Assembly: GCA_964543905.1 (NCBI GenBank)
Contig: CAZIZO010000009.1
Location: 64,524-128,523, forward strand
Source of the DNA: an uncultured Phycisphaeraceae bacterium
GTDB lineage: Bacteria; Planctomycetota; Phycisphaerae; Phycisphaerales; UBA1924
DNA: 64,000 nt
Direction: 5' to 3'
Shown here one piece after another: positions 41,149 to 59,139 of this stretch; the stretch's first letter is position 1, and every line of letters starts with the position of its first letter. A program made the position numbers and the translations under genes. The notes below the pieces were generated by a model that was not told the DNA's origin, did not search any database, and saw nothing but the letters and a program-made list of their open reading frames with translations.

Positions 41149-41197
41149 TGTTGCCACGCCTTCTTCGACCCCACGTCACCCGCCCAACTTGGGCACT

Positions 41198-41635
41198 TCA
41201 CCTCGGGAGCGCGTCCAGGAAGTCTCGGAGAATCGCCGCCGCCGCGATCGCGTCTCGACGCTCCTTCTTTTGCTTGTGCGTCAGCCCCGATTGCGCCATC
41301 TGCCAATCGGCGTCCGCGGTCGACAGCCGCTCGTCCTGGAAGTGCAGCGTTCGCCTCGTGGCGTCCGCAATCCTCGCGCCGAACGCACGGACCATCAGCG
41401 CTCGAGGGCCTTCACGCCCATCCATATTGAACGGCAGCCCCACTACCAACTCGCCCGGAGAGCGTTCCCCGAGATGCTCGCGGGTCGCGCGAACAAGGGC
41501 CTCGAGCAGCGCGTGTCCCTCTCGATCACGCAATGGAACGTGCAGGACGTCCACCGGCGCGGCAAGCCGAGTCTCGGAATCGCCCATCGCGAGTCCCGTT
41601 CGCTTCTCGCCAAGATCGATGCAGAGGTAGCGCAT
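41198..41635 (-). CDS. ruvX: Holliday junction resolvase-like protein RuvX (YqgF)
   Basis: MRYLCIDLGEKRTGLAMGD, VVGLPFNMDG, DERLSTADA. Confidence 0.85.
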   Translation of the reverse strand: MRYLCIDLGEKRTGLAMGDSETRLAAPVDVLHVPLRDREGHALLEALVRATREHLGERSPGELVVGLPFNMDGREGPRALMVRAFGARIADATRRTLHFQDERLSTADADWQMAQSGLTHKQKKERRDAIAAAAILRDFLDALPR

Positions 41636-41749
41636 GCGCGTGCGTCAATCCTACATCGACCAGCGAGCCCGCGAAGGCCCGTTCCCGGCCCTCGCCGACT
41701 CCCCCGGCACGATCCGGGCGACGACCTTCGAAGCCCGATCGACGCAGGC

Positions 41750-43462
41750 TCAGCAGCCCGCATCAAAGCGCGTCAGGTAGTACAACAGGTCGTCGATCGT
41801 GATCCCGCCGTCGGGGGTCGCGGTGGCGGTCCCGTCGTCGATGTCGGCCGTGATCTCGCCCGCCGCAAAGCGATCGAGATAGAACAGGAGGTCGTCGATC
41901 GTGATCCCGCCGTCGGGCGTGCCGGTGTTGGTGCCGTCGTCGAAGTCGGCGACGCAGCCGACGCGGGCGCTGAAGAGACCGTGGGTGTTGTCGGTGAACA
42001 CGAGTTTGAAGACGAGTTCACCACCCGAGGTCCACTGCCCCAGACCCGACTCGGTGGAATCGTGCTCAAAGACGATGGAGCGAATGATCTTGTCGCCCCC
42101 TTCCGGAACGTGGAAGGATTGCCCAGCGCGCGCGATGGCACGCACGGTCCCCGCCCGGTCGGCGGCAAAGAGTGCCATCGATCGCGCGGGCGTGACGTCC
42201 GCGCCGCGCAGATGGGCCGTGAACGCGATCCGACCCGAGCGGCTGGCGCGAGGCTCGCCCAAGATGTTGTAGACCGTGCCGGGGGCCTGGTCCGCGGCCT
42301 GGTCGCCCCGACGGACGATGCGGCGAGGCGAAACGGCTCCCGGATCGAGCACGAAGACGCCCGCGTTGTTCTCGCTTGTCACGTGGCCTGTGAGGTACGC
42401 GAGGAACGCGATGCCGCCACGGGGCATCAGCGAGAGCCGCCTCGCAAAGGACGCGAAGAAGACGCCGGGCATGTCGGGAACGGGGTCTTGGGCCCGCACG
42501 ACGGGCACGGGACCGGAGCCCGTGTCTATGCAAAGCACCTGATCAAACGGGCCACCGAACGAGGGAGCGACCCGTGCGAAGAAGGCGATGGTGCCCGCGT
42601 CGATGATGAGCGGCTCACCCGAGAGTTCGGCCCAGGTGCGCCCGGGGTCGTTGGGAACAGGTGCGCCGGTCAGGGCCACCTGGCTGAGCGTTCCGAAGCG
42701 ATCGGTGAACAGCCCCAAGGCGTAGTTCGTCGGAGCGGGGGCGGAACCCACGCCCGCCTCGGAGCGAAACACGACCTTGCCGAGATCGTTGAGCGAAGGC
42801 GAGCCGAGGGAGCGCAGGCGAGAATCGGGCGGAAGATTGGGCCCCGGCGCGGGCGTGGCGGTGCTGTAGACGGTCGAGCCCGGAACGATCTGGATCGCCG
42901 TTCCTGTGGACCACGCCGAGCGTCCGGATGGCGAGAGTGGGACCAACCCCGGCAACGTCTGCTGATTGATCGCGTCGCGTGCCACCAGCCCGAGCGACGT
43001 CGATTCGACAAACAGAGCCACGTTGGTCTGCTCGGTCGAAGGGGGCGTTCCCTCCACCACGACGCCCGAAAGGGCGATGTTCTTGGCCCAGTTGAAGGCG
43101 GCGGTGGGGATGGCACGGAGCGTGCCGTTGGGCATGCCGGGGGCCGGGTCGCCCTCGCGAGCGAGGAGGGCGAACGAGCCGCCGCGGTTGGACCACAGCG
43201 AACCGTCATTCGCGAACGTGACATCCGTGCCCGCGAGGCGAGCCCAGAAAAGAATGCGGCCGTCTTCGGCGATCCGCGGGTCGGAAACGGCTTCAAACGT
43301 CAGCGACGTGCCGGGCGCGGCCTGCCCAGAGAGGGCAATCGTGGTGTATCGGATTTGACGGGCAAGCGACGGCGTCGCAAGGCACGCGGCAAGCAGGGCG
43401 GGTGCCAGGAACCGGGCGAGGGGGATCGGACGACGTTGCGCAGGATGAACGGCCTGAGTCAT
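41750..43462 (-). CDS. secreted xxGxxAF-repeat protein with GC-dockerin-like C-terminus
   Basis: Signal peptide MTQAVHPAQRRPIPLARFLAPALLAACLATPSLA (alternative ATG at 43498). Repeated units AEDGRILFWARL, LNDLGKVVFRSE, IDAGTIAFFARV, PRGGIAFLAYL, SRSGRIAFTAHL. Ends CVADFDDGTNTGTPDGGITIDDLLFYLDRFAAGEITADIDDGTATATPDGGITIDDLLYYLTRFDAGC-stop. Confidence 0.85.
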   Translation of the reverse strand: MTQAVHPAQRRPIPLARFLAPALLAACLATPSLARQIRYTTIALSGQAAPGTSLTFEAVSDPRIAEDGRILFWARLAGTDVTFANDGSLWSNRGGSFALLAREGDPAPGMPNGTLRAIPTAAFNWAKNIALSGVVVEGTPPSTEQTNVALFVESTSLGLVARDAINQQTLPGLVPLSPSGRSAWSTGTAIQIVPGSTVYSTATPAPGPNLPPDSRLRSLGSPSLNDLGKVVFRSEAGVGSAPAPTNYALGLFTDRFGTLSQVALTGAPVPNDPGRTWAELSGEPLIIDAGTIAFFARVAPSFGGPFDQVLCIDTGSGPVPVVRAQDPVPDMPGVFFASFARRLSLMPRGGIAFLAYLTGHVTSENNAGVFVLDPGAVSPRRIVRRGDQAADQAPGTVYNILGEPRASRSGRIAFTAHLRGADVTPARSMALFAADRAGTVRAIARAGQSFHVPEGGDKIIRSIVFEHDSTESGLGQWTSGGELVFKLVFTDNTHGLFSARVGCVADFDDGTNTGTPDGGITIDDLLFYLDRFAAGEITADIDDGTATATPDGGITIDDLLYYLTRFDAGC

Positions 43463-43720
43463 GTTCGAGCCCCTGTGGAGGCGGCGTGTGAACGACATCC
43501 GTGTGCCGCGGCCGTCGCCGAACCAACCCGCGAGCCTCACCGCGGTATCGGCAGCATCACCCCACGCCCCCTTGCCATCGTGTCCTACCACCCGATCCCG
43601 CGCGGGTTGCACGTGAAAGACGAAAAATCCTGTCGGGGCTGCAACTCCCAGATGTCACGCGTGTATGCCCCAACGACGCGGCAGATTGACCTGCCGATGG
43701 TCCTGCACAGGGGTTTTCTC

Positions 43721-44737
43721 ATGACGTGTACTCGATGCGGCTCCGCCGGTCGTCCTGCCTTTGCCCTCTTGGACCTGCTGACGCTGCTGGCGCTCGCGAC
43801 GATCGTCGTGGCCCTGCTGAGCGTCATGGGCACGCGCTCGCGCCATCTGGGACAACTGGGCGAGTCGATGGCGAATCTCAAGTTCTACGCGTCCGGGTCG
43901 CAGAGTTATGCGGCGGACTACGCCGATCGATTCTGGTCGTTCTCGTGGAGACCCAACAACGTGCCCGCGGACGCGGACCCCGATCTGAGGGCGTCCGCGC
44001 TCGGGAGTGACACGGCCGCCGCCGCCGCGCAGGCGATCCAGGTCCTGCGTCGCCGCGCCAATCGTCCGGACATCCAGATCGTGACCAACTGGATCCCGCA
44101 CATCTTGTACAGCCACCTGGTGCTGGCCGAACACATGGACGCGGAGTTGCCCGCGCGATTCGCTGTTTCGCCCGGGGATCGCGAGCGGCTCCGCTGGGCG
44201 AACGACCCCGCCGGATTTGATCGGGGGATCTACACGCCCAACCCGGGCACGGGAGAGACCGCCAAGCGATGGCCCTACTCCAGCAGTTACGAACTCGGCC
44301 CGGCGTTCTCCGGGCCGGATAGCGGCCAGAACGCGATTACGCAGTCGAATCAATCGAGTATCTATGTCGTTCCCTCCACGCCCAACGTGCTCGGCACGCG
44401 GCTGCTGAGCGAGGTCGTTCACCCCTCCCACAAAGCGATGGTTTGGGAGCAGTATTCTCGGTACCACGCGCCGCGGGCCGCGTTTTTCATGTACACCGAG
44501 GCACGGTGCCCCATCCTGTTCGTCGATGGCAGCGTTCGCCCAAGGCTGACCCAGCAGGGAAACCGCGGATGGAACCCGGCGCAGCCCACGTCCACCTTCC
44601 CCATCACCATGACCCACACGACCATGGCGTGGGAGAGCGGGGCGAGCCTCCCAACGACGACGGTGCAAGGCAACTACCGATACACCCGGCAAGGCCTCCG
44701 CGGGCGAGACTTCGACGGCGCCGAAGTCATGCCGTAA
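43721..44737 (+). CDS. pseudopilin-like protein (degenerate prepilin N-terminal helix, DUF1559-like C-terminus)
   Basis: Only the last ~339 codons of spurious track ORF 40952..44737. The N-terminus GRPAFALLDLLTLLALATIVVALLSV resembles the G-FTLIELLVV pilin helix. The C-terminal ..ILFVDGSVRP resembles the DUF1559 '...DGSV' end. ATG43697 is an alternative start. Confidence 0.55.
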   Translation: MTCTRCGSAGRPAFALLDLLTLLALATIVVALLSVMGTRSRHLGQLGESMANLKFYASGSQSYAADYADRFWSFSWRPNNVPADADPDLRASALGSDTAAAAAQAIQVLRRRANRPDIQIVTNWIPHILYSHLVLAEHMDAELPARFAVSPGDRERLRWANDPAGFDRGIYTPNPGTGETAKRWPYSSSYELGPAFSGPDSGQNAITQSNQSSIYVVPSTPNVLGTRLLSEVVHPSHKAMVWEQYSRYHAPRAAFFMYTEARCPILFVDGSVRPRLTQQGNRGWNPAQPTSTFPITMTHTTMAWESGASLPTTTVQGNYRYTRQGLRGRDFDGAEVMP

Positions 44738-44738
44738 C

Positions 44739-47114
44739 TCAGCAGCCGCCTTCGTACCGCTGGAGGAAGTACAGGAGGTCCTCGATCGTGACCCCGCCGT
44801 CGGGCGTGCCGGTGGCGCTCCCGTCGTCCAGGTCCGCCCGCGCCGTCCCAAGGTCGAAGATGAATAGGTAATAGAGCAGGTCTTCGATCGTGACCCCGCC
44901 ATCGGGAAGCCCGGCGCCGCCGCCATCGTCCAGATCGGCCGGGCAGGCGATCTCCACACGCGCCGCGAGGCTTCGGACGCTGCCACACGCGTTGGTCACC
45001 ACCACGTCGTACGACCCCGAATCACTCGCCATTGCCGGGTTGAGGATCAAGGTCATGGTGTGGGAGCCCGACACGTGCCCGCCATCGGTGAGCGGGATTC
45101 CATTTCGTCGCCAGACATAGGTCACGGGCTCCTCGGATCGCGCCGTGACGTGAAGTTCGCGGGCCGCTCCGACCAGGGAACGCCCCGAGGCCGGACTGCT
45201 CGTGATCTCCGGCGCTCCGGATCGAAGCGTCCAGACCTGGTCGAGGACCCGATCCGGGTCCGCACCGCCGATCATGATCGCCTGCCCGCGCAACTCATCG
45301 AACACAAACCCGGCGCCAAAGCGCGGCGTCGGGGGCAGGTCCGAGATGGGGCTCCAATCGTCGCCGACCAACTCCCACGCGTCGTCGATCGGCTGATTGT
45401 CGGCGATGAGGCCGCCGATCAGCACCAGACGATTCCGGGCGGAGTCAAAGACCAACCCATGCTCGTCACGCGGCGCGGGGACATCACCATCGAAATGCAT
45501 CGGCGTCCAGGCGTTTCCATCCCACGCCCACGCGTCGTTGGCATACCCGATCCCATTCGCAAAGCCACCGAAGAGCACGACCTGCCCGCGGATCGGATCA
45601 AAGGCCATGGCGGCGTGCACGCGCGGCGCGGGACGCAGCGGGGGTGACTTGAGGGTCCATGTTATCCCATTCCACACCCACGTCTCGTCGCTTCGTCCGC
45701 TGGCATCCTCACCCCCAAAGAGCACCGCCTGGCGTCGCACGGGGTCATAGGCCAACGCGGGCGCACGCCGGGGCGAGGGTCCCACCTGCGACGCCAGGGT
45801 CCATCGCGAGCCATCCCACTCCCAGGTCTCGCCACTCAATAATGAGTTATTCTGCCCACCGAAGTGGATGGCCACGTTCCGCGTGGAATCGAAGCACATC
45901 GCCGCCCGCTCCACGACGCCCGGACGCTCGCCCGGCGGGGCTGGTTTCTGCTCCCAGTTCGACCCGTTCCATTCCCAGGTGTCGTTGAGAAGCCCGCCCG
46001 TTCCTCGCCCCCCCACGACGATCGTGACCCCACGAGCGGAGTCGTACGCGACGCCCGGGTACACGCGATGCGGAGGCACCACGCGCGTCCCACGCGAGGT
46101 CCACTCGATCCCATCCCAAATCCATGTCCCGCTGAAGTGGGTATCCGGGGGCGTCATCGTGCGCCCCCCAAACATAAGTGTTTGCCGCGCACGCTCGTCG
46201 TACGCCGCGGACACGAACGCGCGAGCGCTCGGAATCTCCGCTGGAGGCCCCGGGATCCACTCGTTGCCGTTGTACTCCCACGTGTCCATCAACGGCGACG
46301 CGCCCACGCCTAGCCCGCCAAACAGGACCACGCGCCGCCGGGCCCGGTCATACGCCATGGCATGCGAGTGTCGCCCTGGGGGCGTGCCGGCCCCCGTCGC
46401 CCGAAGCGACCACGCCGCGCCGTCCCATTCCCAAGTATCACTCTGATACCCCGCGGACCCGAACAGCCCGCCAAAGAGCACGACGACCCCGCGCTGCGCG
46501 TCAAACGCCATGCCCGCGCCGGATCGCGCCGAGATCGGGCCGTTCCCGATGATTGTCCACTGACTCCCATCCCACGTCCGCGTCTCGTTGGAGGTCCCTC
46601 CTCCACTCGTCGATCCACCGAACACGACCACGTTGCGCCGCACTTCGTCGTACGCCATCGCCATGCGCCGCCGCGCGGGCGTCGAGAACGGCGTGAGGTC
46701 CACCCACGCTTGCCCGTCCCATTCCCACAGATCGGCGAGCGTCACCCCCATCGATGTCCGCCCCCCAAACAGGACGACGCGTCCGCGATCTCGATCAAAG
46801 GCCACCCCCGCCTCGCTCCGCGCCGGAGGTCGAACCAACCCTTGAGCCACCACCGACCAGCGCCCGTCGCTCCACTGCCACAGGTCCGGGTAGGTCCCAC
46901 GCCCGTTCGTTGCGTTCGCGCCCCCCAACATCAACACACGCGAACGTGCCGAGTCGTACGTCATCGCGTACGAGGCACGCGCATCGGGGCGAGGCGACTC
47001 GGCGTACCGTGGCTCGCACGTCGGCTGCGCGCTCGCAACTCCTCCCGCGAGCATCCAGAGCACCGCCGGAGCCCGAGCACCATTCCATCTGCGAATCGGC
47101 GGCGTGCTCAGCAT
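44739..47114 (-). CDS. secreted Kelch-repeat beta-propeller protein + Ig-like domain + GC-dockerin-like C-terminus
   Basis: GGAAAGGTGAAGGGG precedes ATG47114. Signal peptide MLSTPPIRRWNGARAPAVLWMLAGGVASAQ. About a dozen ~50-aa repeats (W-x-W-D/N-G-xx-W ... R-xx-H/A-x-M/A-x-Y/F-D-xx-R-xx-V-L-F-G-G). One Ig-like domain (YVWRRNGIPLTDGG..SGSYDVVVTNACGS). Ends CPADLDDGGGAGLPDGGVTIEDLLYYLFIFDLGTARADLDDGSATGTPDGGVTIEDLLYFLQRYEGGC-stop. Confidence 0.85.
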   Translation of the reverse strand: MLSTPPIRRWNGARAPAVLWMLAGGVASAQPTCEPRYAESPRPDARASYAMTYDSARSRVLMLGGANATNGRGTYPDLWQWSDGRWSVVAQGLVRPPARSEAGVAFDRDRGRVVLFGGRTSMGVTLADLWEWDGQAWVDLTPFSTPARRRMAMAYDEVRRNVVVFGGSTSGGGTSNETRTWDGSQWTIIGNGPISARSGAGMAFDAQRGVVVLFGGLFGSAGYQSDTWEWDGAAWSLRATGAGTPPGRHSHAMAYDRARRRVVLFGGLGVGASPLMDTWEYNGNEWIPGPPAEIPSARAFVSAAYDERARQTLMFGGRTMTPPDTHFSGTWIWDGIEWTSRGTRVVPPHRVYPGVAYDSARGVTIVVGGRGTGGLLNDTWEWNGSNWEQKPAPPGERPGVVERAAMCFDSTRNVAIHFGGQNNSLLSGETWEWDGSRWTLASQVGPSPRRAPALAYDPVRRQAVLFGGEDASGRSDETWVWNGITWTLKSPPLRPAPRVHAAMAFDPIRGQVVLFGGFANGIGYANDAWAWDGNAWTPMHFDGDVPAPRDEHGLVFDSARNRLVLIGGLIADNQPIDDAWELVGDDWSPISDLPPTPRFGAGFVFDELRGQAIMIGGADPDRVLDQVWTLRSGAPEITSSPASGRSLVGAARELHVTARSEEPVTYVWRRNGIPLTDGGHVSGSHTMTLILNPAMASDSGSYDVVVTNACGSVRSLAARVEIACPADLDDGGGAGLPDGGVTIEDLLYYLFIFDLGTARADLDDGSATGTPDGGVTIEDLLYFLQRYEGGC

Positions 47115-47278
47115 CCCCTTCACCTTTCCGTGGTCCCCCCACGAGTCTGCCAGAATCCGAGAGCGTATCTCCATATGCCCTCCAACACAAGTCGCCTCGT
47201 GACCAAACACGACACCGCGCCCTCACGACGAGCGCCCACTTTCGCCTCGTGTCCAAACCAACAGTTCGGCGCCGTCCG

Positions 47279-47309
47279 AAAAAAAAGCCCGCGCTCATGA
47301 GCGCGGGCT
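47279..47309 (-). terminator. intrinsic terminator after Kelch gene 47335..49725
   Basis: Minus strand reads GCCCGCGCTC-at-GAGCGCGGGC followed by TTTTTTTT. Confidence 0.85.
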
Positions 47310-47334
47310 GGTACCAATCCTGATGAAACTGAAC

Positions 47335-49725
47335 TTAACAACCCGCGTCGTACCGGACCAGGTAATACAGCAGGTCGTCGATCGTCACGCCGCCATCGGG
47401 AACGCCCGTGCTGCTGCCGTCGTCGATATCGGCACCGGCGTTGCCCGCACGCCAGAGTTGGATGTAGTAGAGCAAGTCGTCGATCGTGACACCGCCGTCG
47501 GGCGTTCCGGTGCCCGTGCCATCGTCGTAATCGGCGACGCACCCGATCACGAGTTGGGCCGCGGTGCTGGGCGATGAACCGCACGAGTTGGTCGCGACGC
47601 AGCGATACATCCCGGCCTCCGCCGCGGTGATGTTCGACACGGTCAGCGTGTTGGTCAGCACGCCCGAATATGGACCGCCGTCGGAGATGTTGACCCCGTC
47701 CTTCTGCCACTGGTACGCGATCGGCGTGACCCCGGCGCAGAAGGCGCTGAACGTCACCGACTGCCCCGCTCCCGTCGATCGTCCGACGGGCTGCGTCTGG
47801 AAGGACGGCGCACCGGTCTCGAGCCAACGCCCGTCGGTGATGTATCGGGTCGGGTCCAAGCCACCGAAGGCGAAGGTCACGCCTCGCGTCTCCTCGAAGA
47901 CCTGCCCGTGCCCCTGCCGCGCACCAAGATTCGGCGTGGCGTTCAACTGGAGCCAGTTGGCGCCGTCAAACTCCCACGTCTCGCTGCTCCGGCCCGCGAG
48001 GGTAAACCCGCCCGTCATCACGACCTTGCCGCGTGCCGCATCGAACGACATCGCGGCCTCATCGCGAGCCGACGGGCCCGAGACCGACAGTTGGGTCCAC
48101 ACGGTCCCGTTCCAGACCCACGTGTCGCTCGTCAAGCCCACCACGTTGTCCGACCCGCCGAACAGCACGACGTTGCCGCGGACGGCGTCATACGTCATGG
48201 CCGCGTGGACGCGCGGCGTCGGCCCCGTCGTCGCCTTCAAGGTCCAGGCCGTCCCGTTCCACTCCCAGGTGTCCTGTACAAACCCGACGCCGCCCGCGCC
48301 CTCGTCGCCGCCGAAGAGGACGACGACGTCGCGTGCCGAGTCGTAGGCCATCACGTGCGCCCGACGTGGCGACGGGCCGGGGCCACCCATCATGGACCAG
48401 TTCGACCCGTCAAAGAGCCACGTCTCCCCGCTGAAGAACGCACCGTTCTGACCGCCGAACAGGACCACCTTGCCCGAGCCTCGGTGGAAGGCGGCGGCGG
48501 AACGCTCACGCGCCGCGGGCGACGTGGCGGGCGAGAGGCTCGTCCACGTCTCGCCGTTGAAGACCCAGGTATCACCCAGCAGCCCGCTGCCGTTCTTCCC
48601 GCCGAAGAGCACGGTATTGCCCCGGGTCGAGTCGTGCGCCATGACGGGATAGATTCGCGCGGAAGGTGTGGAGCGATCGTTGCGGAGCGACCACTCGTTG
48701 CCATCGAACCAGCGCAGATCGGAGAAGAACTGCACGCCCGAGCCATCGATCGTGACGCCGCCAAAGACGAGCGACACGCCGCGCACGAGGTCATACGACA
48801 TGTTGTGGAAGCCGCGCCCCACCAACCCCGGGGCGGTCAACTGCACCCATTGCGTGCCCGTCCATTCCCAGGTGTCATCGAAGAAGGTGGTGAAATCGAA
48901 CCCGCCGGACATGTAGACCGTGTTGGCGATGCGGTCGTACGTCATGCCGTGGACAAATCGGGCGGGGGGATCGTTGGGCCCACCCCCGGCGGAAACTTGC
49001 GTCCAGTTGGTGCCGTTCCAGGTCCAGGTGTCGTTCGTCACGGTACTGCCATCGGAGCCGCCAAAGAGCACGATGGTATTGCTCCTCGCGTCGAAGGTCA
49101 TCGCGGGGTTCCGGCGTGCCGACGGCGCGTTGGCCGGGGTGAGCAGGGTCCACGTCGTCCCGTCCCATGCCCAGGTTTCATTCAGATAGGCGCCCGTCGC
49201 GTCGCGTCCACCAAAGAGAATCGTCTGGCGACGAACCGGGTCATACGCCAGGCCATACAGGCGACGAGGCGAAGGCGACGTCGCGGGCGTCCGTTGGGCC
49301 CAGTTGGTGCCGTCGAACTCCCACGTATCGCCAAAGACCGTGCCGTCATAGCCGCCAAACATCACCATCATGCGACGATCGGAATCGAAGGAGAGGCACA
49401 TGTCGTCGCGGTGCGAGGGCGACGGGCCCGTCAGAGCGACTTGTGTCCAGCGCGTGCTGTCGAACTCCCAGGTGTCGCCGTACATCCGCCCCAGCGTGCC
49501 GTCCACGCCCCCGAAGAGGACATACTTCCCGCGCACGTGGTCATAGGCGCCGCCGAACGAGCCGCGCCCCACGGGACGCTTGGGGGTCTCCGCCCAACCC
49601 GGCGCGGGACACTGGGCCAGCACGGACGTGGGCAAAGCCATCACGCCCGCGCACGCCACGAGAGCGGCAGCAGGGGTGACACGAAGGGCGGCGCGAGCCC
49701 GGACCGAACGGATTTTGAACGACAT
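47335..49725 (-). CDS. secreted Kelch-repeat beta-propeller protein + Ig-like domain + GC-dockerin-like C-terminus (paralog of 44739..47114)
   Basis: GAGGAG lies 7 nt before ATG49725. Signal peptide MSFKIRSVRARAALRVTPAAALVACAGVMALPTSVLAQ. Same repeat signature as its neighbour. Ig-like YQWQKDGVNISDGG..AGMYRCVATNSCGS. Ends CVADYDDGTGTGTPDGGVTIDDLLYYIQLWRAGNAGADIDDGSSTGVPDGGVTIDDLLYYLVRYDAGC-stop. Confidence 0.85.
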   Translation of the reverse strand: MSFKIRSVRARAALRVTPAAALVACAGVMALPTSVLAQCPAPGWAETPKRPVGRGSFGGAYDHVRGKYVLFGGVDGTLGRMYGDTWEFDSTRWTQVALTGPSPSHRDDMCLSFDSDRRMMVMFGGYDGTVFGDTWEFDGTNWAQRTPATSPSPRRLYGLAYDPVRRQTILFGGRDATGAYLNETWAWDGTTWTLLTPANAPSARRNPAMTFDARSNTIVLFGGSDGSTVTNDTWTWNGTNWTQVSAGGGPNDPPARFVHGMTYDRIANTVYMSGGFDFTTFFDDTWEWTGTQWVQLTAPGLVGRGFHNMSYDLVRGVSLVFGGVTIDGSGVQFFSDLRWFDGNEWSLRNDRSTPSARIYPVMAHDSTRGNTVLFGGKNGSGLLGDTWVFNGETWTSLSPATSPAARERSAAAFHRGSGKVVLFGGQNGAFFSGETWLFDGSNWSMMGGPGPSPRRAHVMAYDSARDVVVLFGGDEGAGGVGFVQDTWEWNGTAWTLKATTGPTPRVHAAMTYDAVRGNVVLFGGSDNVVGLTSDTWVWNGTVWTQLSVSGPSARDEAAMSFDAARGKVVMTGGFTLAGRSSETWEFDGANWLQLNATPNLGARQGHGQVFEETRGVTFAFGGLDPTRYITDGRWLETGAPSFQTQPVGRSTGAGQSVTFSAFCAGVTPIAYQWQKDGVNISDGGPYSGVLTNTLTVSNITAAEAGMYRCVATNSCGSSPSTAAQLVIGCVADYDDGTGTGTPDGGVTIDDLLYYIQLWRAGNAGADIDDGSSTGVPDGGVTIDDLLYYLVRYDAGC

Positions 49726-49967
49726 GATGCAGGTCTCCTCAGTGCTTCTCCCCAGCGACGAGCGCGCCGCGGGATGACTCATTCCCCCAATCGGAAGATA
49801 ACACGCGAAACGATCGCGGCAACTCAAAAAAGGACTTTGAAGCAACTTCGCCACAACGCGCACCCGTCACAATCGCGCACGCGTCGAGTTATTGGCCACC
49901 GCATTCCCCCACGACTGGCACGCTCGCCCGGTTTGATGCATGAGAGCAAAATCAGCCTTGCCGAAAG

Positions 49968-49997
49968 TAAAAAAGGCTGGGCAACATTGCCCAGCCT
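49968..49997 (-). terminator. intrinsic terminator after gene 50028..53315
   Basis: Minus strand reads GGCTGGGCAA-tg-TTGCCCAGCC followed by TTTTTTAC. Confidence 0.8.
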
Positions 49998-50027
49998 CAC
50001 ATAACTATATCGAGACGTTCCGCTGGT

Positions 50028-53000
50028 TTAGCAGCCCAGTTCAAACCGGACCAGGAAGTAGAGAAGATCGTCGATCGTCACGCCGCCGTCAACCGTCCCG
50101 GTCCCGCTCCCGTCGTCCACGTCGGCGCCCGGATCGCCATTCTCAAAGATGGCGAGGTAGTACAAGAGATCGTCGATCGTCGTGCCGCCGTCGGGCGTGC
50201 CCGTGCCGCTCCCGTCGTCCACGTCGGTGATGCAGCCGGTGTTGACCGTCAGGGCGACGGCATCGCTCGTCACGCTGCCGCAGTCGTTCGTGACCACAAC
50301 GTCGTACGACCCCGCATCACCCGCGCCGGCGGGGCTGATGGTCAAGGTGTTGGTGTCCGCACCCGAGATGCTCCCGCCATTCGTGAGATTCACCGTGTCC
50401 TTCCGCCAAACGTACGAGATCGAGGGCGACCCGGAGACCGCGACGCTGAAGACGGCCGACGCGCCCGCGTTCACCGTCTGCGCCGTCGGTGGCGTCGTGA
50501 TGGACGGGCCGCTGTTCACCACGAGCGCGACCTGGTTGCTCGTGACGCTCCCGCACGTGTTGGTGACGACGCAGTCGTAGTTCCCAGCGTCCGCGAGGGT
50601 GATGTTGCTCAGGCCCAGCGACGCGCCGGTGGCGCCCAGGATGTTGGAGCCGTTGAGCCGCCATTGATAGGTGGGGGCGGGGATGCCCGAGGCGACGACG
50701 AACAACGTGTACTCATCACCAAGGCATCGAGACGCCCCAACGGGGTGCGTGGTGATGGAGGGTGCCGTGTTGAGGGTCAGGGTGGCGGCGGTGCTCGTGG
50801 AACTCCCGCACGAGTTCGTGACGACGCAGTCATAGTTCCCCACATCACCCGCCCCGATGGAGGGAATGTTGAAGGTGGCGCTCGTCGCTCCCCCGATGTT
50901 GACGGCGTTCTTGCGCCACTGGAACGTCGGGGTCGGCGTGCCCGAGGCGGCCACGCTGAACGACGCCGACGCCCCTTCGCAGCGCGAGAGGCTGACCGGA
51001 TTCGAGGTGACCGAGGGCGGGACGTTCACCGTCAGCGTGGCGACATTGCTCGGCACGCTGCCGCACGAGTTCGTCACGACGCAGTCGTAGTTGCCCTGAT
51101 CGCCGGACGAGACCGACGCGATCGAGTAGGTCGCATTGGTGGCGCCGGGGATGTCGATCCCGTTCTTCCGCCACTGGAGCGTGGGCGTGGGGGAGCCCGA
51201 GAAGGCGATGGTGAAGGAGGCCGACGCGCCGGTGCAGCGCGTGAGCGAGGACGGTTGCGTGGTCACCCCGGGGCCCGTGCTGACGCCCAGCGTGGCGAAG
51301 TTGCTCGTGAGATTGCCGCAGGCATTGGTGACGACGCAGGTGTAGTTGCCGGCATCGCCCGCAACAACACCCGTGATCGTCAGGTTGGGCGTGGTGGCGC
51401 CCGAGATGGAGCCGCCATCCACGAGGTTGGTAAACCCGCGACGCCATTGGTACGTCGGCGAGCCCGTCGCCACCACCGAGAAGGAGGCGTTCCCGCCCAC
51501 GCAGGCCGACGTGCTCACCGGGTTCTGGGTGAACCCCGGCGCCGCATTGACGGTGAGCGTCGCGTTGTTGGAGGTGACGCTCCCGCAGGTATTGGTGATG
51601 ACACAGTTGTAGTCGGACGCGGCGTCGCCCGCGACGACGCCCGTGATGGTGAGCGTCGGGGAGGTGGCGCCCGAGATGGTCCCGCCGTTGGTCAGGTTCG
51701 TCGTCCCGCGACGCCACTGGAACGAGGGCGTCGTGCCGGACGCGGCGACCGTGAGCGAGGCGTTGCCGCCCTCGCACGCGGACGTGCTCGATGGCTGGGT
51801 TGTGATCGAGGGCGCGGTGCAGCCCCCGGCCGTCGCCGAGAGCGTGAGGGTGTAGATCTGCGTCTGCGTCGGCGTGTTGTTGTCCGAGACGCGGATGAAG
51901 TAGTTCCCGATCGTGGACAACGCGAAGTTGGTGATCGACTCGGCGCCCCCGAGGCCGTTGGCGTTCGCGGTGGCGAGCACCGTCGTGCCGTTGGACGCGT
52001 AGAGCGTGAGCACCAGGTCGGCCTGATTCAGCGCGTCCACGTTGTTCCCGCTCGCGCACGAGCCGTCCGCGTTCTGGGGGCTGCTGTCATAGGTCGAGCC
52101 CAAGGGGGTGACGGTCGCGGTCAGGTTGATCGTGCCCGCCGTGGTGAAGCGGAACCAATCCTGGTCCCCATCGACGCTGATCGCCGTGAGCGCGCCGTTG
52201 CTGATGGCCGGCGCGGGCACGGTGCTCGGGTTGAGGCTGCCCCCCGCCAGGAGGTTCCCCAAGATCGTGGCCGTGGCGCTCGTGTTGTTGGATTCGTAGG
52301 CGTCGCCGTAGTAGCGCTGCCCCGCGCGCAGGTCGTCCTGCTGCGGGCCATCGAACGAGGTGTTGATGAAGGGCTCCATCAACTGGTTCGAGTTGCTCGA
52401 ACAGACATGCTGGAATCCCAGCCCGTGCCCGTGCTCGTGCATGACCACATCGCGGAGGAAGCGATAGGAGTTGGTGCTCGATTGCCAGTTCTCCGACATG
52501 TCGAGAACCATGTCGCCCGTCGAGGGGAAGTAGTTGTACGCGAGCACGCCGTTGACCCCGTCGAGCGTCCGCCCGCCGATGCGGCAGTCGCCTCGCGCCC
52601 CCGCGGCCCCGGCGCTGGTCAAGAATGTCGCGCCGTCGTCCCAGTCGTTCCCGCCCACCGTGACGCGGGTGTACGACGTGCCCGTCAACGCCGCCCAACG
52701 ATCAAAGCACGCCTGGAACTGGGCGATCCACGTCGCTCGCCCACCCAGCGCGGCGAACTTCGAGTCCATCTGGGCGAAGAGATTGCTCGGGGCCGCCGCG
52801 CTCGTCAAGCCGGGTTCGGCGGGGATCGACGTCCCGTCCGGGATAAAACTCCACGTCAGCGCCCGAGGGGTGCCCACCGTGCCCGACCATCGCGTCCCCA
52901 GGTTGTAGCCCGGATCGAGGAACTGCAGCATCGCGCGATTGACGGCCGCCATGACCTCGGGCTTGGGCGGCTCCGTCTCCGAGAAGCACATCATCGGCGG

Positions 53001-53315
53001 GTCGTACAGGAATCCGGGCCGAAACTCGACCTGATCCATGAGCCGATTCATCACCGCCACGACCTCCGGCGCCGCGAACGGCCCGGTCATGTCCCATGCC
53101 TGTTCAAAACTCCCTGCGTAGACCGCGCGGAGCAGCATCTGCTCCACCTGGATCGACCCCCGCAACGATGACCTCTCGGAATCCGTGGTCTCGACCGCAC
53201 CCGCCACCGACGAAAGCCCAACCGCGGGCAGGATCGCCGCGGCGACGAGAGACAAACGCCCACCCAGCCGGCGAGCAAACGAGCGGCGTGACGACGACAA
53301 GTTCTTGGTGTGCAT
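50028..53315 (-). CDS. secreted metzincin (matrixin-like) zinc protease + PPC domain + six Ig-like domains + GC-dockerin-like C-terminus
   Basis: Signal peptide MHTKNLSSSRRSFARRLGGRLSLVAAAILPAVGLSSVAGA. Zinc site VVMHEHGHGLGFQHV (HExxHxxGxxH). PPC-like region YGDAYESNNT..DQDWFRF..YTLTLS. Six ~85-92-aa Ig-like repeats (..C..ASF.V.ASG.P.P.YQWRKN......A...L.I......D.G.Y.CVVTN.CGS.TS..A.L.V). Ends CITDVDDGSGTGTPDGGTTIDDLLYYLAIFENGDPGADVDDGSGTGTVDGGVTIDDLLYFLVRFELGC-stop. Confidence 0.9.
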   Translation of the reverse strand: MHTKNLSSSRRSFARRLGGRLSLVAAAILPAVGLSSVAGAVETTDSERSSLRGSIQVEQMLLRAVYAGSFEQAWDMTGPFAAPEVVAVMNRLMDQVEFRPGFLYDPPMMCFSETEPPKPEVMAAVNRAMLQFLDPGYNLGTRWSGTVGTPRALTWSFIPDGTSIPAEPGLTSAAAPSNLFAQMDSKFAALGGRATWIAQFQACFDRWAALTGTSYTRVTVGGNDWDDGATFLTSAGAAGARGDCRIGGRTLDGVNGVLAYNYFPSTGDMVLDMSENWQSSTNSYRFLRDVVMHEHGHGLGFQHVCSSNSNQLMEPFINTSFDGPQQDDLRAGQRYYGDAYESNNTSATATILGNLLAGGSLNPSTVPAPAISNGALTAISVDGDQDWFRFTTAGTINLTATVTPLGSTYDSSPQNADGSCASGNNVDALNQADLVLTLYASNGTTVLATANANGLGGAESITNFALSTIGNYFIRVSDNNTPTQTQIYTLTLSATAGGCTAPSITTQPSSTSACEGGNASLTVAASGTTPSFQWRRGTTNLTNGGTISGATSPTLTITGVVAGDAASDYNCVITNTCGSVTSNNATLTVNAAPGFTQNPVSTSACVGGNASFSVVATGSPTYQWRRGFTNLVDGGSISGATTPNLTITGVVAGDAGNYTCVVTNACGNLTSNFATLGVSTGPGVTTQPSSLTRCTGASASFTIAFSGSPTPTLQWRKNGIDIPGATNATYSIASVSSGDQGNYDCVVTNSCGSVPSNVATLTVNVPPSVTSNPVSLSRCEGASASFSVAASGTPTPTFQWRKNAVNIGGATSATFNIPSIGAGDVGNYDCVVTNSCGSSTSTAATLTLNTAPSITTHPVGASRCLGDEYTLFVVASGIPAPTYQWRLNGSNILGATGASLGLSNITLADAGNYDCVVTNTCGSVTSNQVALVVNSGPSITTPPTAQTVNAGASAVFSVAVSGSPSISYVWRKDTVNLTNGGSISGADTNTLTISPAGAGDAGSYDVVVTNDCGSVTSDAVALTVNTGCITDVDDGSGTGTPDGGTTIDDLLYYLAIFENGDPGADVDDGSGTGTVDGGVTIDDLLYFLVRFELGC
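50235..51825 (-). repeat. six tandem ~255-275-nt coding repeats (Ig-like domains)
   Basis: The periodicity is visible in the protein. It also shows in the antisense track ORFs, which repeat ..TLPQ/HxLVTTQS about every 260 nt (50857, 51136, 51346, 51643). Boundaries are approximate. Confidence 0.8.
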
Positions 53316-53538
53316 GCGTGCTTCCGTAACAAGGCCCCGACAGGAGCCCGAACTCAACCGACTCCCCTTCAACAGAACTCCCATACCGCGAGCGGGATTG
53401 CATGGATCGCAAGCCCGAGAATACGCGGGCGTCCTCCATCTCTCCTGCTGTTGCTGCAATCTACGTCAAGAGGGACAACCTGAAAACCCTATTCGGAGGA
53501 GATTGACGCCCCCATCCACAAAACCCAAGAAAGCAACG

Positions 53539-53574
53539 AAAAAGCGGACACGAAGTGATGCACTTCGTGTCCGC
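53539..53574 (-). terminator. intrinsic terminator after gene 53636..56701
   Basis: Minus strand reads GCGGACACGAAGTG-cat-CACTTCGTGTCCGC (a perfect 14-bp stem) followed by TTTTTCG. Confidence 0.85.
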
Positions 53575-53635
53575 GGGCGCTCCAAACAGACTTCAAACCT
53601 GAGGTTTACATGAAGATTGATTTATTGAGACTCAT

Positions 53636-56600
53636 TTAGCAGCCGAGTTCGAACCGTTGGAGGTAGTAGAGGAGGTCGTCGATGGTGACGCCGCCATCGG
53701 GCGTGCCCGTGGCCGAGCCATCGTCCACGTCGGCGGCGAGGTCGCCGTTCTCGAAGATGTAGAGGTAGTAGAGCAGGTCGTCGATGGTCACGCCGCCGTC
53801 GGGGATGCCGGTGAAGGACCCGTCGTCCACGTCCGCGACGCATGGACCAACGTATCCGACGCGGAAGGACTCCACGGTGTCCCACACACACGTCGGATCG
53901 CTGTTGCAGGTCCCCTCGACGATCAGGCGGTAGCGGTGGTCCGGGTCCGGAGCGGTGTAGTGGAGGTTGATCATCTGCGTGGTGGCCTCACCCGCCGAGA
54001 GCGAGATCGAGAACTGGACCGGGTCGCCCGGAGGAAGGCCGTTGAGGCTGATCACCTCGGTGTCGGGCTCGTCGTCCGGGGTGAGCACGCGAACGCGGAT
54101 GTTGCGAGTCTCGGCGGAGGGGCCCGTGTTCGTGATCGTGATCGGGAGGTCCAGCCCGGGGCTGGGCACCGCGATGAGCGTGCTCAGGTTCGTCGGAATC
54201 TGGTTGCACAAGTTCGTGTTATCGACGACCTTGCCCTGTGCCGAGAGTTGATCGCCCGTGACGTTATTCTGCACGGCGAAGGTGTAGCACCCGGTCAGCC
54301 CGACGCCAAAGAGCCCCGCCGGGCGGGTGATGACCACGGGGAACGTGAAGCAACCGCCCGGGTTGATCACGGGGGTGATGCCCGTGGAGGGTGAGAAGGT
54401 GGTGGGCCCCACGACGGAGCAGCCCGGGCCGACACCGTCGCCCATCAGGTTCCACGAGTACGTCGCGGGCGATGTGGTGTAGTTGCAGATGGTGAGATTC
54501 GCGGTGACCGTGGTCTGCCCCGGGACACAGAACGACGAGATGGGAGCGGAAACGGCGTTCTTGCACTTCCCCGAAACGCCCGCGGCATAGACGCGCTGGA
54601 TTTCAGCGGTGGAGAGGGCGGCCCGGTGGAACTCAACCTCGTCGATCCCGCCGGAGAAGAAGGAGGAAGCCGGATTGGAGGAGGCGCCCACGCGGAAGGG
54701 CGAACCCGGCGTGCTGTGGTTGCCCGCGCCGGCGCCGACGGTGATCGTCGGGGAGGCCACGCCGTTGACGTACATCGTCAGGGTCGGCACCGGCGTGGGA
54801 CGATAGACGGTGGCGACGTGGACCCAGGTGTTGGCGGGCACAGCGAGGCCCGAGTTGTAGTTGGCGAAGGTGACGCCGTTGCCCAGTTGCGTCAAGAGCG
54901 TGCCGTTCGAGAGGAAGAACAGGTAGCCGAGTGAGGGGATGATGTTGGAGGCGGCGCGCTTGTCGGCGATGACACGCACGCCGTTCGCGCCGGTGTGGTT
55001 GATCCACGCGTCGATGGTGAAGGCGCCGGCGCCGGGGTTGATCCCGGCATAGTCGGGAACCTGGACGTAGTCGTTGACCCCGTCGAAGGTCCGGGAGTTA
55101 TCGACCTGCACGCCCAAGGTGTGCGCGACGCCGTTGAGGTCGGTGCCGGGGAAGGCTGGGGCGCGGATGTTGGCGGCGGTGATCCCCGCGGGCTCATCAA
55201 AGGGGAGCCACAAGGTCATGCGGCTCGGCGCGGAGGTGCAGCCGCAGGTGTGGGTGCAGATGTCGCGCATGTTCGGGTCACGCGGAGTGAAGATGACATC
55301 CAACGCCACATACGGGCTTTGATCCGCTCGCACCATCTGGATCGGATTGAACGGGTCTCGCGCCGCTTGCTGGGGGATGACGCGCTCGTCGCACACCTGG
55401 ACCGCCGGATTGGCGCTCACGGTCGAGAGGAGCGTGTTGGTCTTGCTGGTCCAGAAATCGCGCCCGAGTCCAAAGTGGTTGCGGGCATCGGCGGCGACGA
55501 ACACCCCCCCGTCGGCGGCGGGAATGGCTTCGTGGGCCAGTTCGGTCGTCGTCGGGAAGTTGGAGTTGAAGAAGCGGACTTCATTGGTAATGACGCCCGA
55601 GTTGCTCACCCGCATCAGCGCGCCGTTCGTTGGACCGCCCGCGCTGGAGGCCTCCCGTCCCGCGAAGACAAAGCCCCCAAAGGGATGGGCACGGGCGGAC
55701 TGGCTCTCCCAGAACGTCGGGGTGGTCAGCATCCAGAGGGGAACGCCGTTGGCGTCGGTGCGCACGACGTGCGAGCCGCGGTTGTTGCTCTGGAGATCGC
55801 GCCAAGGACCGGTGAAGACATAGCCGCCCGGGAAGGTCATGCCGTTCGCGCTGACGGGCGGGGCCAGGTCCATCCCTTCCCCCAGGAACTGCTCGCTCAA
55901 GGGTTGCGTCTGCAGGTAGACGTTGGACCAGCGGAGCGGGCCGCAGGCGTTGGACGTTTGGGTCCGCAGGGCGAGAAGTTCGATCGGGCCCACGTCACCA
56001 CGGCGGGTCCATCCGACGACGGTGAACGTGCCGTCGGGATTCTGACGAACATCGTTGAAACTGGTGTACGCCGATGGCCCCCATCGAGCGTCGGTCCAGA
56101 CGCACCCCGACACCTGATTTCCGTTCGCATCCGTGGTGATCAACACCCCCCCGCGGATCCCGCCCTGAGGCGGATTGCTGCGCCGGCCGATGAGCACCCA
56201 TCCCCCTTGTGCGCCGGCGAGTTCGCGCGTCACGCTCTGCCCGTCCGTCGAGAAACCATCACCCTGATACACGTGTGCCCACATGACCGCGCCCGAGGCG
56301 GCGTTGACCTTCATCAGGAAGATCTCGTGCCCGGGGATGGGGCTGGGGCGCATCTCCCCCGCCACGACGTAGTTGCCGTCCTTCGCAACACGAACGCTGT
56401 GGGCCTCGAGTTGCCCGTTCGGGAACGGGTTTGAGTAGTGACGAACCCATTGGCGATTACCGCACTTGTCGAGTTTCTCGAGCATGATGTCGCGGGCGGT
56501 GACGGCATTGAGGGCGACACCGGCGGCGATCGTCCCGCCGTCGGGCGTGCGCTCGGTGCTCGTGGCCCATTCGTCGTTCTGCGTAAAGGTGAGTTCCTGA

Positions 56601-56701
56601 TACGAGAGAGGGGGCGCGGCCGACGCCGGAAGGCCGGCAAGGGAGACCAGCAGGCCGGCGCCGAACAGGCCGGCGGCATGTGCAACACGACGAGTACGCA
56701 T
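53636..56701 (-). CDS. secreted large protein: N-terminal propeller-like region, LamG/concanavalin-like domain, beta-sandwich region, GC-dockerin-like C-terminus
   Basis: GGGAGGA precedes ATG56701. Signal peptide MRTRRVAHAAGLFGAGLLVSLAGLPASAAP. LamG-like segment FDGVNDYVQVPDY..GAFTIDAWI..VIADKR..GYLFFLSNGTL..WVHVATVY..LTMYVNGV..GGIDEVEFH. Ends CVADVDDGSFTGIPDGGVTIDDLLYYLYIFENGDLAADVDDGSATGTPDGGVTIDDLLYYLQRFELGC-stop. Confidence 0.85.
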   Translation of the reverse strand: MRTRRVAHAAGLFGAGLLVSLAGLPASAAPPLSYQELTFTQNDEWATSTERTPDGGTIAAGVALNAVTARDIMLEKLDKCGNRQWVRHYSNPFPNGQLEAHSVRVAKDGNYVVAGEMRPSPIPGHEIFLMKVNAASGAVMWAHVYQGDGFSTDGQSVTRELAGAQGGWVLIGRRSNPPQGGIRGGVLITTDANGNQVSGCVWTDARWGPSAYTSFNDVRQNPDGTFTVVGWTRRGDVGPIELLALRTQTSNACGPLRWSNVYLQTQPLSEQFLGEGMDLAPPVSANGMTFPGGYVFTGPWRDLQSNNRGSHVVRTDANGVPLWMLTTPTFWESQSARAHPFGGFVFAGREASSAGGPTNGALMRVSNSGVITNEVRFFNSNFPTTTELAHEAIPAADGGVFVAADARNHFGLGRDFWTSKTNTLLSTVSANPAVQVCDERVIPQQAARDPFNPIQMVRADQSPYVALDVIFTPRDPNMRDICTHTCGCTSAPSRMTLWLPFDEPAGITAANIRAPAFPGTDLNGVAHTLGVQVDNSRTFDGVNDYVQVPDYAGINPGAGAFTIDAWINHTGANGVRVIADKRAASNIIPSLGYLFFLSNGTLLTQLGNGVTFANYNSGLAVPANTWVHVATVYRPTPVPTLTMYVNGVASPTITVGAGAGNHSTPGSPFRVGASSNPASSFFSGGIDEVEFHRAALSTAEIQRVYAAGVSGKCKNAVSAPISSFCVPGQTTVTANLTICNYTTSPATYSWNLMGDGVGPGCSVVGPTTFSPSTGITPVINPGGCFTFPVVITRPAGLFGVGLTGCYTFAVQNNVTGDQLSAQGKVVDNTNLCNQIPTNLSTLIAVPSPGLDLPITITNTGPSAETRNIRVRVLTPDDEPDTEVISLNGLPPGDPVQFSISLSAGEATTQMINLHYTAPDPDHRYRLIVEGTCNSDPTCVWDTVESFRVGYVGPCVADVDDGSFTGIPDGGVTIDDLLYYLYIFENGDLAADVDDGSATGTPDGGVTIDDLLYYLQRFELGC

Positions 56702-57048
56702 CTTCAAATCCTCCCAACGCGAGCGTGTCTGGCGCTCGATTCCAGTCCTCACGTCCCGCGTGATCGCTCGCGCAGGACAGCACACAACGGGCGGCAAGCC
56801 CGAGGAACGCGGTTCCACTGGTCGATGGGTGCACCCACGAAGGCCACGCTTCAACCCTTGTTCTCCTCGGAGAACAGCCTATTCGACCATCTCGGCGACC
56901 CCGTGTCAAGGCGACTGTGAGGGTGGCCGACACAGGGACAGCGTGGGGGGCGGGGCGATCTTGCAGACCTTGCAGCCGAATTTCGCCCTCGGCACAAAAA
57001 ATGTTGGGCGACGTGCCCGGGGAAACCCAAGGGCGCCCGTCTTCTCGA

Positions 57049-57609
57049 TCAACGCGCCGACAATCCCTTGACGATCTCGTGGGCTTGGCGAAGGTGGAGC
57101 GCCTGGTGGAAGGGGGCGAACGTGGCCCAGATGCGCGACGAGAGCGGACCAAACCAAGGATGCACATGCGTTTGCCGACCCTCCCGCAACGCCCGGGGAT
57201 CGGCGAGTGCTCGCTCGAGGTCGGCGATCGAGGCATCCAGATCGCGGAGCGCGGCCTCGGGTTGTGCGTCGGGCGCGGGCTTGTAGTTCGCGATCGCGAC
57301 CACGAGGGGCGACGGTCGATCCCGGGCGAGATCGGTCAGGACCTTGGCAAGGTCTCGGTTCACGCGCGCCAGGTGTTCCGCGACCATCGCGAGGGAGTAG
57401 TTGGTTGAACTCTCCTCCAACCCACGCAAACGCTTGATCTGCACGCGCGTGGTCGCGTGGGGGCCGGCCCGGTCGATCAAGCCGATCAGTTCACCCTGCT
57501 GCAGGCGACACAGCCTGGCCGATTCCTCGGGCGGATTCGCGATCGCCCATCGGCGGATGATGAGCCGGGCTATGAATCGCTCGAGCGCTGGAATTCCGGT
57601 CGGCGGCAT
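57049..57609 (-). CDS. hypothetical protein, DinB-superfamily/DUF1569-like
   Basis: MVAEHLARVN ... HVHPWFGPLSSRIWATFAPFHQALHLRQAHEI resembles the His-containing helices of DinB-fold proteins. The assignment is weak. Confidence 0.45.
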   Translation of the reverse strand: MPPTGIPALERFIARLIIRRWAIANPPEESARLCRLQQGELIGLIDRAGPHATTRVQIKRLRGLEESSTNYSLAMVAEHLARVNRDLAKVLTDLARDRPSPLVVAIANYKPAPDAQPEAALRDLDASIADLERALADPRALREGRQTHVHPWFGPLSSRIWATFAPFHQALHLRQAHEIVKGLSAR

Positions 57610-57663
57610 GCGCCGAGATTCGCCCGCATCCTCGCGGTGGATTCGGGCCTGGTCTCGTGAGGA

Positions 57664-58350: not shown

Positions 58351-58492
58351 GGGCGAAGAGTACGTGAACACCACCCCGCACGGGGGTGTGGAGTTGAACA
58401 CGCGTCGCGCCTAAACTCACCCCCTTCTCCGCCGGGCGGTGGTTCGTACTTTGGGCGGGGGATTTCAGTCTTTTTTCCGAAGGATACCGGCC

Positions 58493-59047: not shown

Positions 59048-59100
59048 TCGACGAACGGGCCGCTCGCGCATTCCTCTGAACCCCCATGAAGTTCTCCGCC

Positions 59101-59137
59101 GCGGCACGCTCGTGAGGGGCGTGCCGCTATCTTCTGT
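59101..59137 (+). terminator. possible weak terminator/attenuator between efp and aroK
   Basis: GCGGCACGC-(9 nt)-GCGTGCCGC followed by TATCTTCTGTG (a poor U-tract). It ends 3 nt before the aroK ATG. Confidence 0.3.
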
Positions 59138-59139
59138 GC

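Follow-up and report, generated by a model that had tools for sequence, protein, structure and literature searches.

The type I and type II dockerins of cellulosomes (PF00404) are duplicated loop-helix modules located at the C termini of secreted cargo proteins, and many cargo paralogues are encoded in each genome of their cellulolytic Firmicute hosts. For the Phycisphaerae, a hypothetical "planctosome" of the Nemodlikiaceae has been put forward, in which dockerins would display peptidases and binding modules outside any cellulosome (Andrei et al. 2019; PMC6461901). In that model, canonical cohesin and dockerin Pfam modules occur in a few proteins, and an anchoring protein is named (PMC6461901). 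A further point of comparison is the PEP-CTERM/exosortase system, whose C-terminal signal comprises a PEP motif, a transmembrane helix, and an Arg-rich tail. Here, we analyzed a 64-kb stretch of DNA (referred to as the window) from a Phycisphaeraceae bacterium (Planctomycetota). Between positions 41750 and 56701, the window carries five minus-strand genes, numbered 1 to 5 in order of increasing coordinate. All of them end in the module catalogued by NCBIfam as NF041540, "GC-type dockerin domain-anchored protein" (here, the GC module).

The GC module resembles cellulosomal dockerins in the duplicated loop-helix organization predicted for it, in its C-terminal position on putatively secreted cargo, and in the many cargo paralogues found per genome. 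It differs from them in that each loop is extended by about 7 residues, a Cys stands at either end, and Dockerin_1 does not match it. In addition, neither a cohesin nor a scaffoldin was detected among 35 window proteins or among recurrent neighbors, the GC cargo is not carbohydrate active (Kelch, M10, LamG, multicopper oxidase), and the host belongs to an aerobic-type planctomycete lineage. The likeness to the cellulosome stays an analogy. As with the planctosome, a non-cellulosomal dockerin display in Phycisphaerae is proposed; unlike the planctosome, the GC-type display would involve a variant module, a far larger cargo set (at least 69 to 76 per genome), and no known cohesin. Gene 1 is reminiscent of PEP-CTERM systems: its cargo falls in the "choice-of-anchor" family TIGR05002, and PEP-CTERM takes the place of the GC module in its homologues. 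However, the GC module lacks the PEP motif, the transmembrane helix, and the Arg-rich tail, and it is modeled as a folded domain of 68 residues. Compared with NF041540 itself, a family defined by sequence only, the array genes are plain members and show no difference. A literature search returned no paper using the family name GC-type dockerin. The locus is real and more than a chance arrangement, yet it is an ordinary instance of a catalogued family; because the module had already been catalogued, nothing at the locus is categorically new. Our reading is that the locus is probably a lineage-typical tandem array of separately transcribed secreted-protein genes in a Phycisphaeraceae chromosome.

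The array genes end in a loop-expanded, dockerin-like module

A preliminary description of this DNA had proposed five minus-strand genes ending in the GC module. All five open reading frames (ORFs) were found at 41750 to 56701 with the same ends, and NF041540 matched at every C terminus. The start codons chosen in that description give products of 570, 791, 796, 1095, and 1021 amino acids (aa) for genes 1 to 5. The products of 570, 796, 1095, and 1021 aa are identical to gene products on record (100% identity for the 1021-aa protein of gene 5); exact look-ups of gene 5 and of protein P0168 gave no match. The five genes proved not to be contiguous, because a plus-strand gene (43721 to 44737) lies between genes 1 and 2, leaving four co-oriented genes plus one. 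Moreover, the window holds eight GC-dockerin genes in total, the other three being on the plus strand. The genes of the preliminary description were confirmed and had been accurately described.

Gene 1 (41750 to 43462) encodes a signal peptide, a cargo of DUF7453/NxxGxxAF "choice-of-anchor" repeats (TIGR05002, 146 bits; PF24251, 196 bits), and a GC module at 41753 to 41956. Genes 2 (44739 to 47114) and 3 (47335 to 49725) each encode a signal peptide, about 12 Kelch repeats, one immunoglobulin (Ig) I-set domain, and a GC module (44742 to 44945 and 47338 to 47541, respectively). These two genes, 42% identical over their full length, are the only paralogous pair among the five. Gene 4 (50028 to 53315) combines a signal peptide with an M10 matrixin domain (Peptidase_M10, 50.9 bits), in which the zinc motif HEHGHGLGFQH is intact, six Ig I-set domains (I-set, 237.6 bits), and a GC module at 50031 to 50234. 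Gene 5 (53636 to 56701) encodes a signal peptide, a LamG domain (Laminin_G_3, 85.2 bits), a C-terminal region, and a GC module at 53639 to 53842; its N-terminal 500 aa or so lie outside any assigned domain. By eye, all five N termini look like Sec signals, in which basic and hydrophobic segments are combined with an end of the Ala-X-Ala type.

The GC module occupies the last 68 residues of each array protein, and the stop codon follows directly after the final Gly-Cys. Against a cutoff of 29 bits, genes 1 to 5 scored 70.6, 69.5, 73.0, 63.9, and 71.5 bits with NF041540, and each match covered profile positions 1 to 67 of 67. Per-column identity among the seven clear window copies is 79%. Their consensus reads C-x-A-D-x-D-D-G-S-G-T-G-x-P-D-G-G-V-T-I-D-D-L-L-Y-Y-L-x-x-F-x-x-G, after which a second repeat closes with R-F-E-x-G-C. 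Recent gene conversion among the modules was ruled out by their DNA identity of about 81%, with scattered synonymous differences. An AlphaFold model built from an alignment of 86 sequences (predicted local distance difference test score, 97.5) placed helices at residues 20 to 31 and 54 to 65, each following a loop of about 19 residues.

The terminal position of the module extends well beyond this locus. It stops at the stop codon in nearly all of 176 copies from relatives and the window, and 160 of 166 distinct related modules end in Gly-Cys. When a library of 1.84 billion cluster representatives was searched with the module, 2115 clusters were found to carry it (1356 at E ≤ 1e-10), and in all of the 150 best matches the module reaches the last residue. 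The first and last Cys are retained even in single-repeat variants. From this pattern, the two ends of the module are probably joined by a disulfide after export. The module probably also binds Ca2+.

To relate the module to known dockerins, we aligned profiles with hhalign. The GC profile aligned with the C-terminal tails of DUF7453 homologues at 96.7% probability (E = 3.6e-10), with both repeats in register and a 7-residue insertion (G-S-x-T-G-T-P) in each GC loop. Seven of eight such tails are themselves matched by Dockerin_1 (best E = 1.3e-7). The dockerin link is transitive, and the intermediates themselves end in GC. By these profile alignments, the GC module is homologous to canonical dockerins; it is probably a derived, loop-expanded dockerin, with two loop-helix (F-hand-like) repeats in the AlphaFold model.

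A hybrid form was observed elsewhere in the window. The plus-strand gene at 13576 to 15942, with a DUF1028 and FG-GAP cargo, ends in a module (15778 to 15939; 68 bits) whose first loop has the canonical 12 residues (DVDANGGVTIDD) and whose second loop is expanded. Since it pairs one canonical with one expanded loop, this module looks like a natural intermediate toward the GC type, as an origin by loop insertion would produce.

Genes 2 to 5 look like separate transcription units

The preliminary description had reported strong terminators after genes 3 to 5 and good Shine-Dalgarno sequences before genes 2 to 5, and had taken these as signs of independent expression rather than of an operon. We scanned for intrinsic terminators and found 18 terminator-like sites, compared to 9.0 ± 3.5 in shuffled sequence. 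The top three sites between 41 and 58 kb were those after genes 5, 4, and 3. The terminator of gene 5 (53574 to 53544, minus strand) has a 14-bp stem (-26.1 kcal/mol; z = -8.1), that of gene 4 (49998 to 49973, minus strand) an 11-bp stem (-21.3 kcal/mol; z = -5.0), and that of gene 3 (47309 to 47286 plus a T-run, minus strand) a 10-bp stem (-20.5 kcal/mol; z = -4.1). None of the shuffled sequences folded as well as these three.

Genes 2 to 5 are preceded by spacers of 220 to 350 nucleotides (nt). On the minus strand, the spacer upstream of gene 2 (47115 to 47334) holds the gene 3 terminator and the Shine-Dalgarno-like string GGAAAGGTGAAGGGG, that of gene 3 (49726 to 50027) holds the gene 4 terminator and GAGGAG, and that of gene 4 (53316 to 53635) holds the gene 5 terminator and GGAAG; the spacer upstream of gene 5 (56702 to 57048) contains GGGAGGA. 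These strings lie 6 to 9 nt before the ATGs, as had been reported, and are kept in two relatives. The upstream stretches described as untranslated regions of 165 to 350 nt do exist, in the form of intergenic spacers. An operon would be expected to have short or no spacers and no internal terminators, whereas here spacers of 220 to 350 nt are combined with terminators between genes 5 and 4, 4 and 3, and 3 and 2. Because genes 2 to 5 are separated by strong terminators that are kept in relatives, the view of independent units holds up: these genes look like separate transcription units, and from the sequence we infer monocistronic transcription of the array genes.

Next to the array, the gene 1/ruvX spacer (41640 to 41749, minus strand) was considered as a structured element (-63.9 kcal/mol; z = -3.8); it has no U-tract. 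This candidate was rejected, as the z value is only -0.8 in the relative L073 and the sequence is only 71% conserved.

We compared the upstream regions with those of two metagenomic contigs (L073 and L074) that are collinear with window positions 41011 to 59200 at 86 to 89% nucleotide identity. The spacers upstream of genes 5, 4, and 3 are 89 to 92% identical to these relatives, while identity at third codon positions in the neighboring GC genes is only 62 to 79%. The spacer upstream of gene 1 and the gene 1/ruvX spacer are 71 to 73% identical. The block at 49652 to 49882 (minus strand), which comprises the gene 3 leader and first codons, is at least 98% identical in both relatives; few stretches in the 18-kb comparison are as well conserved, and the flanking third positions are at 72 to 79%. 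Identity to L074 is about 97% over roughly 200 promoter-proximal nt of the gene 5 spacer. The terminator stems are unchanged in the relatives, and substitutions are confined to the loops.

Searches for regulatory elements in these regions were negative. The alignment of the five upstream regions showed no conserved block in common, and the only k-mers enriched in 128 GC-gene upstream regions were T-runs and pieces of coding sequence from the GC module of the preceding gene. Matches to the sigma-54 consensus were at chance level, with none upstream of the five genes, and no sigma-70 promoter was found in a scan of the region. A 21-mer from the gene 3 leader gave just two matches in metagenomes, both unrelated. 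The idea of a promoter or operator motif shared by the leaders was thus not borne out. The conserved leaders had no Rfam match and folded no better than shuffled sequence (z = +0.4 and +1.0). The constraint on the leaders more likely concerns promoter or operator DNA, or else an RNA site recognized by its sequence.

The GC tail as a candidate anchor for putatively secreted cargo

We examined which tails occupy the position of the GC module in homologues of the cargo proteins. Among homologues of the DUF7453 cargo, P0121 and P0122 carry the GC module itself, P0123, P0124, P0139, and P0141 end in short-loop Cys...GC dockerin-like tails, and P0144 and P0148 have tails matched by Pfam Dockerin_1. 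PEP-CTERM-like tails are the commonest ending among these homologues. Orthologues of gene 5 (35 to 39% identity) have short-loop, Cys-rich, dockerin-like tails in place of the GC module. Because the module fills the slot that recognized envelope-anchoring or sorting signals hold in homologues, these comparisons indirectly support a role of the GC tail in anchoring or display.

Three of the gene 5 orthologues (P0171 to P0173, from contigs L075 and L076) have tails such as CAGDYNQDGVVDFFDYLDFVAAFD...EEGCP. The orthologue in L075 lies two genes from ruvX, an arrangement like that of the window array.

The explanation that we favor, with moderate confidence, joins these elements. An N-terminal signal peptide would carry each protein across the cytoplasmic membrane via Sec. 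The GC module would then fold, probably with Ca2+ and a terminal disulfide, and the folded module would dock non-covalently onto a shared, putative envelope receptor, through which many different binding and degrading cargoes would be displayed at the surface. In the array, these are the Kelch propellers, an M10 metalloprotease on an Ig stalk, a LamG lectin-like protein, and a DUF7453 repeat protein. Genes 2 to 5 would each be expressed from their own promoter and leader, and genes 3 to 5 would each end at their own intrinsic terminator.

Several results weigh against this explanation. Pfam Dockerin_1 (PF00404) gave no match at E ≤ 0.01 for the full proteins or at E ≤ 10 for isolated modules, and a profile search of the PDB was non-significant, its best match being a scaffoldin dockerin at E = 0.78. 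The two best Foldseek matches in the PDB were type II dockerins and were weak (E of 1.9 to 3; template modeling score of 0.46 to 0.50). No cohesin match was obtained among the 35 window proteins scanned, and the only non-GC families that recur beside the arrays (650 ORFs from 69 related loci, about 1.1 Mb) are generic, with ABC ATPases at the top. With respect to transcription, the terminator scan detected none after genes 1 and 2, and transcripts of gene 1 may read through into ruvX. As the stop codons of gene 2 and of the convergent plus-strand gene are 1 nt apart, there is no room for a gene 2 terminator, and the two transcripts must converge without one.

The lack of a cohesin partner among the neighbors at related loci would also be expected if the GC module were a C-terminal sorting or secretion signal, which a dedicated translocon of the outer membrane or a processing enzyme would cleave or attach covalently via the terminal Cys, as in the type IX secretion system (T9SS) or PEP-CTERM/exosortase. 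The strictly terminal position of the module, its nearly invariant Gly-Cys end, its occurrence in the same slot as PEP-CTERM signals in homologous cargo, and the dozens of substrates per genome, as in sorting systems, all agree with such a signal. However, the dockerins to which the module is homologous serve in binding, and cysteines at both of its ends are easier to explain by an internal disulfide than by a free site for attachment. The C termini (...RFExGC) carry no hydrophobic or transmembrane helix and no basic tail as in PEP-CTERM, no NCBIfam or Pfam family of the T9SS or PEP-CTERM type matched, and no sortase-like candidate recurs beside the arrays. We consider a sorting signal unlikely.

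GC arrays are common in related genomes

To place the locus in its lineage, we scanned one genome per species with the module alignment, which gave 219 matching stretches, and analyzed the best 80. These best 80 of the 219 were confined to three metagenome-assembled genomes (MAGs), two from Phycisphaeraceae and one from Phycisphaerales. The resulting 69 loci contained 176 modules, with as many as seven co-oriented genes arrayed within 10 to 14 kb. Of the two best-sampled Phycisphaeraceae MAGs, one encodes at least 76 distinct GC genes and the other at least 69. Tandem GC genes in the relatives are separated by a median of 160 nt, with 75% of the spacers measuring 100 nt or more. Of 74 pairs of adjacent GC genes, 67 are co-oriented, compared to 400 of 679 pairs of other neighbors, and a strong hairpin with a T-run follows 31 of 167 GC genes, compared to 41 of 607 other ORFs (P = 1.6e-5); both sets of counts are approximate, given crude ORF calling and some overlap among a few of the loci. 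A cluster like that of the window, with five genes in 15 kb and terminators of their own, is thus normal for the GC gene class.

The preliminary description had gone further and likened the cargo combination to an extracellular toolkit for binding and degradation, analogous to cellulosomal cargo. On such a reading, the five genes would form one functional set, kept together and co-regulated like the cargo islands of cellulosomes. The cargo does combine a protease with putative binders, and the leaders of genes 3 to 5 are constrained. In L073 and L074, the gene order is also the same as in the window, including the opposite-strand gene. However, the housekeeping flanks are equally collinear at 86 to 89% identity, so that the kept order is expected from descent alone. 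In more distant relatives (35 to 39% protein identity), homologues of the M10, Kelch, and LamG proteins occur in other contexts; the genes are thus clustered in the two close relatives, and their order is lost farther out. No motif is common to the leaders, the set is broken by an unrelated gene on the opposite strand, genes 2 and 3 are the sole paralogues, and arrays of GC genes with arbitrary cargo are found throughout the lineage. Taken together, these points speak against a coherent toolkit, which we regard as improbable. The most likely origin of the array is local duplication (genes 2 and 3) combined with accretion, and not growth as a co-regulated pathway.

The cargo parts of the array have diverged faster than the flanks. 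The gene 5 protein is 77.5% identical, compared to 95 to 97.5% for EF-P and YajQ. When gene 5 is compared with L074 positions 10001 to 13072, its cargo proves to evolve faster than any other part of the region (77.5% aa and 62% third-position identity), whereas hardly any change is seen in its GC module and leader, a pattern that fits a diversifying, surface-exposed protein.

Dockerin-like modules that lie outside cellulosomes and lack an obvious partner have reportedly been described by Peer et al. A GC module that has no dedicated protein receptor, and that acts as a Ca2+-binding adhesive tail on envelope or matrix polysaccharide or on other GC modules in a loose extracellular layer, would agree with the Asp- and Gly-rich loops and with the lack of a cohesin-like neighbor at related loci, but it is very unlikely, as the high conservation of the helix faces (LLYYL and RFE) across 2115 clusters suggests one specific partner surface.

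We return to the explanation in which the GC tail docks cargo to a common putative receptor. In its strongest form, at least 70 cargoes per genome would be held by a disulfide-stapled, loop-expanded dockerin on a receptor of a novel kind, other than a canonical cohesin, and the conserved leaders, such as the block at 49652 to 49882 with its identity of at least 98% across three species-level relatives, would be sites at which a dedicated regulator controls individual cargo genes; this form is tentative and rather doubtful. Planctomycete cell surfaces are poorly understood, and a single tail found on approximately 1400 to 2100 clusters, with dozens per genome, points to a general route by which proteins are attached to the envelope. 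The present analysis offers testable handles on that route. The tail can be described as a derivative of dockerins in which each loop carries 7 inserted residues and a Cys stands at either end. On one and the same type of cargo, its place may be taken by canonical dockerins or PEP-CTERM. GC genes, finally, are as a rule self-contained, each with a constrained leader and a terminator of its own. The upside is modest and lies in the putative receptor and the constrained leaders.

Other genes of the window

The remaining GC-dockerin genes of the window lie on the plus strand. Besides the gene with the hybrid module, they include a gene at 908 to 3556 with a multicopper-oxidase cargo (module, 3350 to 3553) and a gene at 24027 to 25334 whose cargo has no family match (module, 25128 to 25331). 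Together with the array genes, the three score 64 to 73 bits with NF041540, and their matches likewise lie at the very C terminus and end in Gly-Cys. Convergent to the gene at 24027 to 25334 is rpoN, encoding sigma-54 (25428 to 27122, minus strand).

Immediately before the GC module of genes 2, 3, and 4 lies an I-set Ig domain bearing the motif Y-x-C-V-x-T-N-x-C-G-S (44946 to 45200, 47542 to 47800, and 50235 to 50500, minus strand). The same junction occurs in unrelated fragments (e.g., P0029), which suggests that the Ig domain and the GC tail may form a mobile cassette.

The array is flanked on one side by ruvX, yajQ, purM, and rhlE and on the other by a DinB-like gene, a DUF480 gene, efp, and aroK. 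A genome scan with the DUF480 flank protein turned up no relatives. The G+C content is about 66% and uniform along the window, and tRNA and Rfam scans of the window found no tRNA and no Rfam family. The uniform G+C content, the housekeeping flanks, and the lack of a tRNA ruled out a mobile island.

The gene between genes 1 and 2 (43721 to 44737, plus strand) encodes 338 aa, or 361 aa if translation starts at 43652. It is called in independent assemblies, its product is 93% identical in L073, and its third codon positions are less conserved than the whole gene, which fits a coding sequence. No Pfam or NCBIfam family matched it. By eye, the longer form (43652 to 44737) looks pilin-like, with the N terminus GRPAFALLDLLTLLALATIVVALL and the C-terminal sequence CPILFVDGSVRPRL; these ends resemble those of planctomycete prepilin-type/H-X9-DG (DUF1559-like) proteins.

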